Below are positions 1,403-6,908 of a stretch of 64,000 nucleotides of DNA, in pieces; the first letter of the stretch is position 1; every line of letters starts with the position of its first letter. The translations under genes were made by a program, and so were the position numbers. This DNA comes from Nitrospirota bacterium (GTDB lineage Bacteria > Nitrospirota > UBA9217). The stretch is from assembly GCA_029858565.1 (NCBI GenBank), contig JAOUEV010000003.1, positions 80,074 to 144,073 of the forward strand. The letters run 5' to 3'. The notes beneath the pieces were generated by a model. It saw nothing but the letters and a program-made list of their open reading frames with translations. It had not been told where the DNA came from and ran no database searches.

Positions 1403-2686
1403 ATGACTTTAGTCTATTTTCTTATTGTGATCGGCATTCTCGTGTTCGTGCATGAGCTGGGACACTTCATCACCGCCAAGCGCGCAGGCGTGCGGGTGGA
1501 GAAGTTCTCGCTCGGCATGGGGCCGAAGCTTTTCGGATACAAGAAGGGCGACACGGAGTATGTGCTGTCCGCGCTGCCGCTGGGCGGGTACGTGAAGATG
1601 GCTGGCGAGAATCCCGATGAAGAACCGACCGGCGCGCCTGACGAGTTCCACTCCAAGACCGTATGGCAGCGCGCCAAGATCGCCGCGGCGGGGTCGCTCA
1701 CGAACATCGTGCTCGCGTTCGTCCTGATGCCGCTGGTTTATATGGTCGGCACCTATGCCGAGGGACCTGCCAAGGTCGGATTCGTGGAAAAGGGTTCACC
1801 TGCCGCCAAGGCGGGATTCCTGGCCGGCGACGTGATCACCGAGATCAACAACCGGACCATTTCCGACTGGACCAAGGCGTTATCCCTCATAGCCGTGAAT
1901 CCCGACACCGATGTGACCGTAACACTTGAGCGGGGGAGCGAGAAGAAGGTGCTGACGCTCAGACCGGAAGCGGCAACAGAGCTCAGGATCGGCACCGCGG
2001 GTCTCATGCCGGACATGCCGGCCGAGATCGGCAGGCTGCGGTCAGGTTTGCCCGCTGAAAAGTCCGGCTTGAAGGTGAATGACAAGATCCTGGCTGTCGA
2101 CAATGTCACGATCTACCACTGGAACCAGTTCTCCCTTGCGGTAAAGGAGAGCGGGGGCAAGGCGCTGAACCTCAGGATCGAGCGTGCGGGGAAACGGCAG
2201 GATATGACCATTATCCCGGTCATGGATAGCGGAAGATACGTGATCGGTGTGGAGCCCTATATCCGCTATGTGTTCAAGAAGTTTGGCTTCTTCGAATCCA
2301 TCCGGCTCGGATTCACCAAGACGCTCGAGACCGCGGACCTGACGTTCATCACCCTCAAGAAGCTCCTGTCCTTTGGACTTTCGATCAAGACCCTGGGCGG
2401 TCCGGTGATGATAGCCCAGATGTCCGGAGCTGCCGCAGCGGCCGGTCTTTCGGCCTTTATCGCCCTCATGGCGACCATCAGCCTGTCGCTCGGCATGCTG
2501 AACCTGCTTCCGATCCCGGTGCTGGACGGCGGCATGCTGCTGTTCCTGGCCATCGAGGCCGTGCGCAAGAAGCCCATGAGCCAACGGGTCATGGAAGTGA
2601 GCCAGGGGATCGGCGCCGCGCTCCTGATCACGCTGATCGCGGTGGTATCGTACAATGATGTGATGCGGTTGTTCTTCAATAAATAG
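1403..2686 (+). CDS. rseP: RIP metalloprotease RseP
   Basis: HELGH zinc motif, two PDZ-like segments, NLLPIPVLDGG; dxr-rseP synteny. Confidence 0.96.
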   Translation: MTLVYFLIVIGILVFVHELGHFITAKRAGVRVEKFSLGMGPKLFGYKKGDTEYVLSALPLGGYVKMAGENPDEEPTGAPDEFHSKTVWQRAKIAAAGSLTNIVLAFVLMPLVYMVGTYAEGPAKVGFVEKGSPAAKAGFLAGDVITEINNRTISDWTKALSLIAVNPDTDVTVTLERGSEKKVLTLRPEAATELRIGTAGLMPDMPAEIGRLRSGLPAEKSGLKVNDKILAVDNVTIYHWNQFSLAVKESGGKALNLRIERAGKRQDMTIIPVMDSGRYVIGVEPYIRYVFKKFGFFESIRLGFTKTLETADLTFITLKKLLSFGLSIKTLGGPVMIAQMSGAAAAAGLSAFIALMATISLSLGMLNLLPIPVLDGGMLLFLAIEAVRKKPMSQRVMEVSQGIGAALLITLIAVVSYNDVMRLFFNK

Positions 2687-2692
2687 AGGCAG

Positions 2693-3781
2693 ATGAATCC
2701 CATTCCCCGAAAAAAAACCCGTCAGATCAGCGTAGGCCCGGTGAAGATCGGCTGGGGCGCGCCGGTGGTCGTGCAGTCCATGTGCAACACCGACACGCGC
2801 GATGCCGCTGCCACGATCGGTCAGATCAACCGGCTGCAGGCGGTCGGGTGCGAGCTTGTGCGGCTTGCGGTCCCTGATGAGGATGCTGCACGGACGCTCG
2901 GAAGGATCAAGCAGGGTACGACCATGCCGCTGATCGCGGACATTCACTTCAGCCATACGCTGGCTTTGGAAGCGATCAAGCAGGGCGTGGACGGGCTCAG
3001 GATCAATCCCGGGAACATCGGCGGCAAGGACAAAGTGAGCGAGGTCGTTGCAGCATGCAGGGACCGGAACATCCCGATCCGGATCGGCGTGAACGCGGGC
3101 TCGCTGGAAAAACATCTGCTCGAAAAATACGGCCATCCCACGCCCGAGGCAATTGTTGAGAGCGCCTTCGGCCATATCCGCATCCTTGAAGAGCTTGATT
3201 ATCAGAACATCAAGGTCTCGCTCAAGGCATCGGACGTGCTGACCACGGTTGAATCCTACCGGTTGTTCTCGAAACGATCCGATTATTCGGTGCATATCGG
3301 CATTTCCGAGGCAGGCACACTTCACTCGGGAACGATCAAGTCCAGTGTCGGTCTGGGCATTCTCCTGTCCGAAGGCATCGGCGACACCATGCGGGTATCG
3401 CTTACGGCCGATCCGGTCGAGGAGGTCCGCGTTGCTTACGAGATCCTGAAGTCACTCAGGATCCGGCAGCGGGGCGTGAACATCATCTCCTGCCCCACCT
3501 GCGGCAGGACGGAGATCGATATTATCGGCCTGGCCGAGACCGTGGAAAAGCGGCTCAGCCATATCACCGAACCGCTCACCGTGGCGGTAATGGGCTGCGT
3601 GGTGAACGGGCCGGGCGAAGCGCGCGAGGCCGACATCGGCATCGCCGGCGGCAAGGGAACCGGTCTCCTGTTCAAGCATGGGGAGATCGTGAAGAAGTTC
3701 GATGAGAAGGAACTGGCGGATGTGCTGGTGAGGGAAGTGGAAAAGATCGTGAGGGAGAAAGAATCGTCTCGTTGTGATTGA
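2693..3781 (+). CDS. ispG: 4-hydroxy-3-methylbut-2-en-1-yl diphosphate synthase
   Basis: VQSM, ADIHF, RINPGNIG, RIGVNAGSL, CPTCGR, VMGCVVNGPGEA. Confidence 0.98.
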   Translation: MNPIPRKKTRQISVGPVKIGWGAPVVVQSMCNTDTRDAAATIGQINRLQAVGCELVRLAVPDEDAARTLGRIKQGTTMPLIADIHFSHTLALEAIKQGVDGLRINPGNIGGKDKVSEVVAACRDRNIPIRIGVNAGSLEKHLLEKYGHPTPEAIVESAFGHIRILEELDYQNIKVSLKASDVLTTVESYRLFSKRSDYSVHIGISEAGTLHSGTIKSSVGLGILLSEGIGDTMRVSLTADPVEEVRVAYEILKSLRIRQRGVNIISCPTCGRTEIDIIGLAETVEKRLSHITEPLTVAVMGCVVNGPGEAREADIGIAGGKGTGLLFKHGEIVKKFDEKELADVLVREVEKIVREKESSRCD

Positions 3782-3813
3782 CAGGAATCGGGGCAACTCG
3801 GATAATAACTGCC

Positions 3814-4104
3814 ATGGGAATCGACGAACTTATAAAAGATAAACGAACTGAAATCCTCCGCATCGCCGAGAAGCACGGTGCCTACAATGTCCGTATTTTC
3901 GGGTCAGTAGCCCGCGGCGAAGCAGGCCCTGCCAGCGACATTGACATCCTGGTCGAGGTGGGGCAAAAGCATTCGTCCTTTTTCCCCGGCGGTCTTGTCG
4001 CTGATCTCGAAGAGCTCCTCGGCCGGCGTGTGGATGTGGTCACCGTGAAGGGATTGAACAAGTTTCTCCGCGATCGGGTGCTGAGGGAGGCTGTGGCGCT
4101 TTGA
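3814..4104 (+). CDS. minimal nucleotidyltransferase (MNT) antitoxin
   Basis: FGSVARGE...SDIDILV and LEELLGRRVDVV; about 96 aa from the ATG at 3814; followed by a HEPN remnant. Confidence 0.9.
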   Translation: MGIDELIKDKRTEILRIAEKHGAYNVRIFGSVARGEAGPASDIDILVEVGQKHSSFFPGGLVADLEELLGRRVDVVTVKGLNKFLRDRVLREAVAL

Positions 4105-4347: not shown

Positions 4348-6042
<1,695 letters not shown>

Positions 6043-6091
6043 GGACGTGACACGTGATGCGTATGACGTGGAGCGTAAGGGGTACGGGGAA

Positions 6092-6346
6092 ATGCAGGAG
6101 CAGGACCTAGCGAAGATCAGAGCAATCATAGAAGAGCGGAACGTCCGTTATGCTCCCAAGGGAGGCAGCGTTACCCTTGCGGGTATCGAGGGCGGGACCG
6201 TGAAGATCGCGCCTGCGGGATTCTGCTGGCGGTGACATGTGACCCGTATAGCCCTGGTCGAGGGCTTGCAGGAAAAGTTGAAAAAGGAGTTTCCCTGGGT
6301 TGAACAGGTCATTGTGATCAACCTGGATAAGACAAAAAAAGCTTGA
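6092..6346 (+). CDS. NifU/Nfu-like domain selenoprotein (in-frame UGA at 6233-6235, CWRU motif)
   Basis: Reading through the TGA gives ...GGSVTLAGIEGGTVKIAPAGFCWR-U-HVTRIALVEGLQEKLKKEFPWVEQVIV, which matches the Nfu pattern GGxVxL...V.V...GAC..C..S..TL..GIE..L...FP.V..V; SECIS-like hairpin directly downstream. Confidence 0.75.
6250..6266 (+). promoter_or_regulatory. putative bacterial SECIS hairpin
   Basis: AGCCCT-GGTCG-AGGGCT stem-loop; the loop starts with G and begins 20 nt after the UGA. Confidence 0.6.
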
Positions 6347-6400: not shown

Positions 6401-6628
6401 ATGGACGAGTCTATCAAGATCTCGCTTACGCCCCAGCAGAGCGCGGAGATCAAGAAACAGATCGGATTCGAACTTACCGAGATATACCTCACCAAACGTT
6501 CACTGAACAAGCTTCGTGTCTTCCGGCTGCGCCTGAGCGAGGAACAGCAGGAGCAGATCACCGAGGCTTGGGGTCAAAAGGTGAAAGAATTGACCGTGAC
6601 CCGCTCAGTCGCCACCCGGATAATGTAA
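6401..6628 (+). CDS. small hypothetical protein with internal duplication
   Basis: GGAGG RBS, TATAAT upstream at about 6366; two similar halves (ISLTPQQSAEIKKQIG / LRLSEEQQEQITEAWG). Confidence 0.65.
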   Translation: MDESIKISLTPQQSAEIKKQIGFELTEIYLTKRSLNKLRVFRLRLSEEQQEQITEAWGQKVKELTVTRSVATRIM

Positions 6629-6707
6629 TTGAGAGAATGATCGCGCCGCGCAAGGGGCGCGCAGGTTTATTGTTGGTCCAGACCGAATGCGAAGGGAGGT
6701 GATTCCT

Positions 6708-6908
6708 GTGAAAAAGGCATTTTCGCTCCTGCTTTCATTGGTTATTGTTGCTACATTTGTCATGATCGGCTGTGAGAAGAAGCCCGAACCCCCGAAGCCG
6801 GCCCCGGCTCCGGCGGTAACGCCTCCTCCACCGCCCCCGGCTCCGGCACCTGCTCCGGCTCCCGCGCCGAAGCCTGCCCCGGCCCCCGCAAAACCGGCAA
6901 AGAAGTAG
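6708..6908 (+). CDS. small Pro/Ala-rich lipoprotein
   Basis: GGGAGGTG RBS, GTG start, signal peptide ending in MIGC lipobox, then PAPAPAP tract. Confidence 0.75.
   Translation: MKKAFSLLLSLVIVATFVMIGCEKKPEPPKPAPAPAVTPPPPPPAPAPAPAPAPKPAPAPAKPAKK

Follow-up and report, generated by a model that had tools for sequence, protein, structure and literature searches.

Nfu proteins hold a [4Fe-4S] cluster bridged across a dimer, and carriers of the Nfu type supply radical S-adenosylmethionine (radical-SAM) enzymes. Among catalogued selenoproteins, only the HesB-like protein is known to us as a relative of iron-sulfur (Fe-S) carriers, namely a selenocysteine (Sec)-containing relative of the A-type carriers. 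This protein is listed as experimentally verified (PMC13188914, Table 1) and belongs to the 119 prokaryotic selenoprotein families and subfamilies of the 2026 catalogue, which also include several entries that bind Fe-S or 2Fe-2S clusters and a large number of CxxU proteins (PMC13188914). Table 1 of that catalogue holds no NifU, Nfu or PF01106 entry, and the words "nifu" and "nfu" are absent from its main text, as they are from the main text of a 2022 review (PMC9312934); likewise, no paper on an Nfu or NifU selenoprotein was found by title or beginning of abstract, while survey supplements could hold an unlisted candidate. Here we describe such a protein, hereafter Sec-Nfu, encoded at 6092-6346 on the forward strand of a 64,000-nt stretch of a Nitrospirota bacterium (assembly GCA_029858565.1, contig JAOUEV010000003.1, positions 80,074 to 144,073; this whole stretch is hereafter "the window"). 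The first-pass annotation of the window did not know Sec-Nfu as a textbook selenoprotein family, in agreement with the 2026 catalogue. Positions 6092-6346 very probably encode an 84-residue selenoprotein with the Nfu/NifU C-terminal-domain fold, and we give a probability of roughly 0.55 to the whole explanation favoured here, i.e., a Sec-decoded protein of this fold that would act as an Fe-S carrier.

The coding sequence (CDS) comprises 84 codons and a terminal TGA (6344-6346, + strand), with an in-frame UGA at codon 48 (6233-6235, +) that closes a C-W-R-U motif (Cys45, Trp46, Arg47 and Sec48; TGC-TGG-CGG-TGA, 6224-6235, +). Its start, the ATG at 6092, was placed via alignment with 14 orthologues and is preceded by a G-rich run resembling a Shine-Dalgarno sequence (by eye), and the orthologues end with TGA, TAA or TAG at a comparable place. 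A list of open reading frames (ORFs) made with translation table 11 presents the gene as two separate ORFs, 6047-6235 and 6239-6346. The first-pass annotation had joined these pieces by reading 36 further open codons from the UGA to the TGA at 6344-6346; its coordinates are correct, and its peptide FCWR-U-HVTRIALVEGLQEKLKKEFPWVEQVIV matches the read-through translation exactly. It had also expected standard gene callers to truncate the protein, which ORF calling and public gene calls both do: every member is split into "hypothetical protein" pieces of ~47 and ~35 residues, or the first half is labelled "NfuA".

The read-through product matches the Pfam family PF01106 from profile position 2 to 67 of 67 (38.2 bits for a cut-off of 27, E = 1.6e-9), and since this match spans the whole profile, only the joined product makes a complete domain. 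Scanning the same protein against NCBIfam gave weak, sub-threshold matches to NifU proper (TIGR02000, 19.5 bits vs. a cut-off of 273) and NfuA (TIGR03341, 18.1 vs. 269), neither qualifying as an equivalog and both confined to the C-terminal domain region, and returned no dedicated model for Sec-Nfu. An AlphaFold2 model built on a 15-row orthologue alignment (mean predicted local distance difference test score, pLDDT, 80.1; predicted template modelling score, pTM, 0.64) displays an alpha-beta-beta-alpha-beta layout (helix 2-23, strands 26-33 and 36-42, helix 49-66, strand 72-75), in which C45 is part of a loop and U48 immediately precedes the second helix, given the modelled boundary of helix 49-66. 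The top four Foldseek matches in the PDB are all Nfu/NifU-like domains (2m5o, 2z51, 1veh and 2jnv), the best being the C-terminal domain of human NFU1 (2m5o, TMq 0.81, root-mean-square deviation 1.8 A).

When aligned with ordinary Nfu proteins, the UGA stands opposite the second Cys of their CxxC motif, where the first-pass annotation had put it, and C45 and position 48, aligned to this CxxC, are two of only four invariant columns among 30 rows. The surroundings of the motif are remodelled, from a canonical G-A-C-x-G-C-P-x-S to G-F-C-W-R-U-H-x-T-R: the CxxC spacing and the first Cys are kept, Sec would be the second ligand, and Arg, His and Thr stand where the canonical motif has Gly, Pro and Ser. 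Sec-Nfu is thus like the Nfu/NifU C-terminal domain proteins (PF01106) in its full-length hidden Markov model (HMM) match, in its fold and in the place of its motif, and like the ordinary Nfu of its own genome in being a single-domain protein of similar size. It differs from ordinary Nfu in its second Cys, which is Sec, in having C-W-R-U-H-x-T-R instead of C-x-G-C-P-x-S, and in an identity of only about 21-35%, with a separate and well-supported branch.

The HesB-like selenoprotein (TIGR01911) provides a precedent, as a small protein of the Fe-S biogenesis or carrier type that contains Sec, but it has an unrelated fold and family and a UxGP motif, and TIGR01911 was not among the NCBIfam models hit by the read-through protein at E <= 1. 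SelW-like and AhpD-like proteins and glycine reductase protein A have the C-x-x-U spacing with Sec second in common with Sec-Nfu (PMC13188914); their folds are different, and Pfam and NCBIfam gave no match between Sec-Nfu and any of the three.

The UGA itself is strongly conserved. All 17 near-length matches in a 5.8-billion-protein index are fragments of 46-63 residues (53-55% of the query) that end in ...C-W-[R/K/G/Q], and were therefore cut at the same codon. A six-frame search of 60 related genomes returned 14 with a 52-70% identical match in which the alignment crosses one TGA and reaches query residue 76-84, and a 15th (G031) with a frameshifted copy; weaker "TGA" matches in these genomes correspond to ordinary Nfu genes with a terminal stop TGA. 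In the alignment of 15 orthologues (A1, frameshifted copy left out), codon 48 is UGA in 15/15, C45, W46, R47, U48, H49, T51, R52, A54, L55 and V56 are invariant, and 13 residues are invariant after the UGA. Every close homologue has this TGA, Cys being found at the position only in distant ordinary Nfu proteins, so that the singleton nonsense mutation against which the first-pass annotation had set its reading is not what is seen. Because the same UGA, downstream frame and hairpin (see below) recur in dozens of independent assemblies, the feature goes beyond chance. The idea that the TGA is an artefact of sequencing or assembly, or else a nonsense mutation recently acquired by a pseudogene, would find some comfort in the few damaged copies of the gene, but it has to face the same TGA in independent assemblies from many samples and purifying selection on both sides of it, and its probability is practically negligible. 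The damaged copies (L030/L061 on G031:C3 and L091, frameshifted, and protein P0020, with a shifted tail) have lost the frame either within the N-terminal half or at codon 48, and are either decaying copies or assembly errors.

Evolutionarily, the frame beyond the UGA behaves as a coding sequence. Computed over all pairs of the 15 orthologous genes, the ratio of non-synonymous to synonymous divergence (pN/pS) is 0.29 in codons +1 to +28 (pS 0.59, pN 0.17) and 0.42 upstream of the UGA, which corresponds to a purifying selection that is stronger after the UGA than before it and to a downstream frame conserved at the protein level, on which the first-pass annotation had made its reading depend. 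This bears on the possibility that the UGA is a true stop, in which case the locus would yield a 47-residue N-terminal peptide, and possibly a separate 35-residue C-terminal one, from a split or decaying Nfu gene. Standard ORF calling yields exactly these two pieces, both kinds of fragment occur among public gene calls, and the window has a GTG at 6239 from which the second piece might be read. However, the His codon lying between the UGA and this GTG (+1) encodes an invariant residue and is written CAT in 8 orthologues and CAC in 7, Thr+3 and Arg+4 are likewise invariant with synonymous variation, and pN/pS for codons +1 to +4 is as low as 0.14. Codon +2 is ATC, ATA, ATT, GTC, GTA or CTG in several orthologues, and because it is thus often no usual start, a separately initiated second gene can be set aside as the leading explanation. 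The complete fold is moreover found in the joined product and in neither half, and the UGA is kept in two clades only 36-49% identical, all of which makes a true stop very unlikely.

A hairpin with the features of a bacterial selenocysteine insertion sequence (SECIS) follows the UGA. The published bacterial model (bSECIS) has a loop of 3-9 nt with a G in its first two positions, a stem of 4-16 bp, 16-37 nt between UGA and loop, and a minimum free energy of at most -7.5 kcal/mol (PMC13188914). The hairpin AGCCCU-GGUCG-AGGGCU (6250-6266, +), with its 5-nt loop GGUCG (6256-6260), its 6-bp stem (6250-6255/6261-6266), a spacing of 20 nt and -10.0 kcal/mol, falls within all of these bounds. The first-pass annotation had named this hairpin, rightly as to sequence and place, and proposed that it be checked with a bacterial SECIS predictor; its spacing of 20 nt is correct for the start of the loop and not for the start of the stem, which lies at 14 nt. 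Folded alone, the hairpin has a z-score of -3.3, with 1/200 shuffles as stable.

Comparative evidence for this structure comes from the 15 orthologues, of which the hairpin is the RNAalifold consensus, with 96.7% of pair cells standard. The closing pair, which links the third base of codon +5 with the first base of a Leu codon (TTG and CTG being synonymous), is A-U in 8 sequences, G-C in 5, G-U in 1 and broken in one. Synonymous divergence is 0.185 in codons +5 to +10 vs. 0.65-0.76 in the flanks, and several codons are nearly frozen (GCC for Ala+6 in 14/15, CTG for Leu+7 in 15/15, GGC for Gly+10 in 13/14), whereas comparable residues outside the hairpin use three or four codons. In clade B, a second and more divergent Sec-Nfu group (36-49% identical to the window protein), the hairpin occupies the same place, with a second stem pair that is A-U in part of the clade vs. 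C-G in clade A. When clades A and B are taken together (40 sequences), 82.9% of cells are paired, compensatory change is seen at two pairs, and the covariation score is reached by 0/500 shuffles, a count that does not amount to a probability as the sequences are related. An alternative register (22-28 with 35-41) was rejected: it pairs in 66.8% of cells over the same 40 sequences, vs. 82.9%, and fits only part of clade B. An Rfam scan of the window returned nothing at gathering score.

As an internal control, the region after the Sec codon was folded for five other selenoprotein genes of the same genome. A GGUC-type loop was seen in 3/5 (GGUCU at +21 in two fdh-like genes, AGGUC at +22 in selD1), the loop GGUCG of Sec-Nfu lying at +23 in this numbering, while fdhA and selD2 look different. 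The predicted SECIS hairpins of the two selD genes are also unlike each other. The Sec-Nfu hairpin resembles the bacterial SECIS of the E. coli fdhF type in being small and lying within the CDS shortly beyond the UGA, and in an apical loop that begins with G and contains GGUC; it differs in a short upper stem (6 bp) and in a register shifted by one in part of clade B.

The host genome (3.9 Mb in 144 contigs, the window being on contig C62) encodes the machinery that the first-pass annotation had asked to be looked for. Its selA (604 bits) and selB (389 bits) genes are side by side on contig C101, two selD genes have one in-frame TGA each (C3:2376-3290, L010; C14:90529-91446, L011), and the selA, selB and selD proteins all score above curated cut-offs. 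ARAGORN identifies a tRNA-SeC with anticodon tca, and one fdhA and two fdh-like genes with one TGA each represent Sec-type formate dehydrogenases. A link to tRNA selenouridine was considered and rejected, as selU was not found above its cut-off in this genome (best 20.8 bits vs. 219.75). Sampling the phylum evenly (401 genomes) gave 32 with a Sec-Nfu match at 104-128 bits, with an in-frame TGA in 32/32, and the next matches (<= 87 bits) are ordinary Nfu proteins; these holders comprise 22/64 genomes of the window's own family (G000 included), 7/14 of family f24 and 3/5 of f13. Overall, selA is seen in 29/32 holder genomes and in 191/401 of the whole sample.

Given the conserved UGA, the SECIS-type hairpin, the full machinery and the constraint on both sides, we consider it highly probable, from sequence evidence, that SelB inserts Sec at codon 48. 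The UGA at 6233-6235 would be decoded by SelB with tRNA-Sec, the hairpin at 6250-6266, inside the coding sequence, would direct the insertion, and selenium would thereby enter the protein. Decoding of the UGA as a standard amino acid (Trp or Cys), through near-cognate decoding or an altered code and with no selenocysteine involved, has nothing specific in its favour, the frame being open under any code in which TGA is sense. The same gene terminates with TGA and long table-11 ORFs around it are intact, which, along with the Sec machinery of the genome and of the holders (29/32 with selA) and a hairpin conserved at the right distance with frozen synonymous sites, makes this possibility extremely unlikely.

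Sec-Nfu is thus a real, well-supported selenoprotein family outside the 2026 catalogue, and represents a new Sec-using variant of the Nfu family, whose recoding mechanism is the standard bacterial one. To evaluate its extent, a profile of the 15 rows was searched against 1.84 billion representative proteins, and 27 of the 110 matches at E <= 0.001 were fetched. These include 12 N-terminal fragments ending just before the UGA, some of them divergent (C-Y-R, C-R-R or C-H-R), 5 C-terminal fragments starting just after it, 1 frameshifted variant, 1 protein ending earlier and 8 ordinary CxxC Nfu proteins. Thirteen of the 14 best matches are fragments broken at the UGA, the other being an unfetched 1184-aa protein with 11 matched stretches, and the highest-scoring protein of full length, at 46 bits, is one of the ordinary CxxC Nfu proteins. 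Among the 27 fetched of 110 matches, a full-length Cys form belonging to the Sec-Nfu clade was not found.

At the DNA level, the pattern G-x-C-x-x-UGA-H-x-T-R-x-A-L-V, which is blind to clade B, was searched in 185,579 species genomes and found in 20 stretches, all titled as Nitrospirota, Nitrospirae, Nitrospiria or Nitrospiraceae metagenome-assembled genomes (MAGs); all 20 have the UGA and a complete C-terminal half on read-through, one with a known upstream frameshift. A metagenome scan queried with the divergent N-terminal fragments gave 30 loci, of which 27 share the in-frame TGA codon and continue beyond it with H-x-T-R-[M/I]-D-L-V... through to the last strand, and three do not conform (one frameshifted, one cut by the contig end, one an ordinary Cys Nfu). 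Every named record with Sec-Nfu is a Nitrospirota MAG. In a maximum-likelihood tree of 52 rows (21 clade A, 11 of the 19 distinct clade-B sequences and 20 Cys Nfu), the 32 Sec rows are split from the 20 Cys rows with a branch support of 99/94, on an 88-column alignment and with an arbitrary root, and each Sec clade (A and B) lies on one side of a branch. This topology is compatible with a single origin of Sec-Nfu, as far as these sequences go.

These results bring selenocysteine, as very probably decoded here, into Fe-S cluster trafficking by way of its Nfu branch and point to selenium dependence in uncultured Nitrospirota, which should be of interest to selenoprotein and Fe-S specialists alike. 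Because all members found are Sec forms, the family also constitutes a good test of what selenium does beyond sulfur at a metal-ligand or CxxC position. In practice, a family model with Sec at the position-48 column would mend the annotation of these genes in Nitrospirota MAGs.

As to function, Sec48 would stand in for the second CxxC cysteine of Nfu, where helix 2 begins, and the protein would carry Fe-S clusters in the manner of Nfu, each subunit contributing a selenolate instead of one of its thiolate ligands, acting beside the ordinary Cys-Nfu of the genome and serving Fe-S client enzymes. We favour a carrier because the protein retains the two ligand positions along with the entire fold and because the only informative linkage is to a radical-SAM enzyme; that Sec would be a cluster ligand, that the protein would bind a cluster and dimerise, and that it would serve a client are together put at about even odds or slightly better.

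The linkage comes from clade B. A radical-SAM gene matching TIGR01212 (313-319 bits vs. a cut-off of 180), which NCBIfam names "tRNA modification radical SAM protein MnmL/YtqA", lies upstream of Sec-Nfu on the same strand in 19/19 clade-B metagenome loci whose upstream sequence extends to at least 790 nt; it is at most 602 nt long in the 10 Sec-Nfu metagenome loci with no such match. The radical-SAM gene is also upstream in 9/9 clade-B loci from f24 and f13 genomes, with a gap between mnmL and Sec-Nfu of about 30-80 nt in f13-type loci. This adjacency points to a radical-SAM client. It is thus tempting to speculate that Sec-Nfu is the first Nfu-type carrier to ligate its bridging cluster by a selenolate, and a dedicated, Nitrospirota-specific maturation or repair factor for radical-SAM enzymes such as MnmL/YtqA, although we regard this more specific proposal as unlikely. 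If true, selenium availability would feed directly into the maturation of Fe-S enzymes and into tRNA modification.

Several observations weigh against the explanation of Sec-Nfu as a Sec-decoded Fe-S carrier, or against parts of it. On the RNA side, a 76-nt stretch containing the site folds with ordinary stability (z = 0.12), and in a synonymous-recoding control only 9/40 sequences are more stable than 95% of their recodings, a control that used the codon usage of the window's proS and is ill-suited to clade B. As these energy tests are unremarkable, the case for a SECIS is built on where the hairpin lies, on the sequence of its loop, on its frozen synonymous sites and on changes in its pairs, and not on energy. 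selA was not seen in 3/32 holder genomes, the completeness of which is 96%, 89% and 77%. In the window's clade, Sec-Nfu lies between proS and a small conserved ORF with no Fe-S enzyme adjoining, and mnmL is on another contig in the window's genome. Within clade B, an opposite-strand ORF separates mnmL and Sec-Nfu at one f24 locus (L096), for which reason the linkage there is to be read as synteny and not as an operon. Lastly, the Nfu signature around the cysteines (small residues, Pro and Ser) is swapped for Trp, Arg and His, and these altered surroundings could signal a chemistry other than cluster binding.

This last point leads to a different function for what would still be a genuine selenoprotein, namely a CxxU thiol/selenol redox centre for which the Nfu fold is a mere scaffold, active in the reduction of disulfides, persulfides or polysulfides, or in a sulfur/selenium relay. 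The four remodelled residues (Trp, Arg, His and Arg) show no variation within clade A and could tune a selenolate, and C45 in a loop with U48 at the start of helix 49-66 presumably recalls the geometry of thioredoxin-type motifs. The genome also retains an ordinary Nfu for cluster transfer, and most predicted prokaryotic selenoproteins have UxxC or CxxU motifs and are regarded as redox proteins (PMC13188914). Set against this are both Nfu ligand positions, retained within a complete Nfu domain, and the link of clade B to a radical-SAM Fe-S enzyme; besides, the genes seen adjoining Sec-Nfu include no thioredoxin reductase, peroxiredoxin or partner of that kind. We thus hold a redox role to be possible and somewhat less probable than an even chance, and retain the Fe-S carrier as the preferred reading.

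The neighbourhood in clade A differs from that of clade B. Its loci share the order proS (4348-6042 in the window), Sec-Nfu, a 75-aa ORF without Pfam or NCBIfam family directly downstream (6401-6628, +), a small Pro/Ala-rich ORF (6687-6908, +) and, after it, a GspE/PilB-type ATPase. The 75-aa ORF was considered as a dedicated partner of Sec-Nfu and rejected, since it occurs in 61/64 genomes of the family irrespective of Sec-Nfu, and for the same reason the clade-A neighbourhood carries no functional signal for Sec-Nfu. The distance from proS to the 75-aa ORF is 117-230 nt in 8/8 picked genomes without a Sec-Nfu-level match, and 358 nt in the window; as the two genes simply adjoin in non-holders, Sec-Nfu appears to be present or absent at one fixed site. 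A search for relics of Sec-Nfu in these gaps gave only weak, non-significant matches (E = 0.16-0.36).

Several minor observations concern neighbouring genes. The 75-aa ORF is 73-89% identical across the family, more conserved than Sec-Nfu, and is found downstream of proS in every locus examined. The ORF at 6687-6908 has a hydrophobic N-terminus, a Cys and a long Pro/Ala-rich tail (lipoprotein-like by eye), and its conservation in relatives is limited to the N-terminal ~30-60 residues. At L096, the ORF between mnmL and Sec-Nfu (2522-3025, -; 167 aa) is nitroreductase-like by eye, and a 180-aa ORF (3287-3829, +) begins inside the last codons of Sec-Nfu, an overlap of about 25 nt, as judged by eye from the translation. 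The ordinary Cys-Nfu of the window's genome (G000) has the motif GACGSCPMS and, in the region C74:114558-118117, is followed by three same-strand ORFs that look by eye like subunits of an Rnf complex. Finally, a 108-aa ORF of the window (3778-4104, +) has a GSxxRGE...DxD-type stretch and the look of a small MNT-like nucleotidyltransferase.

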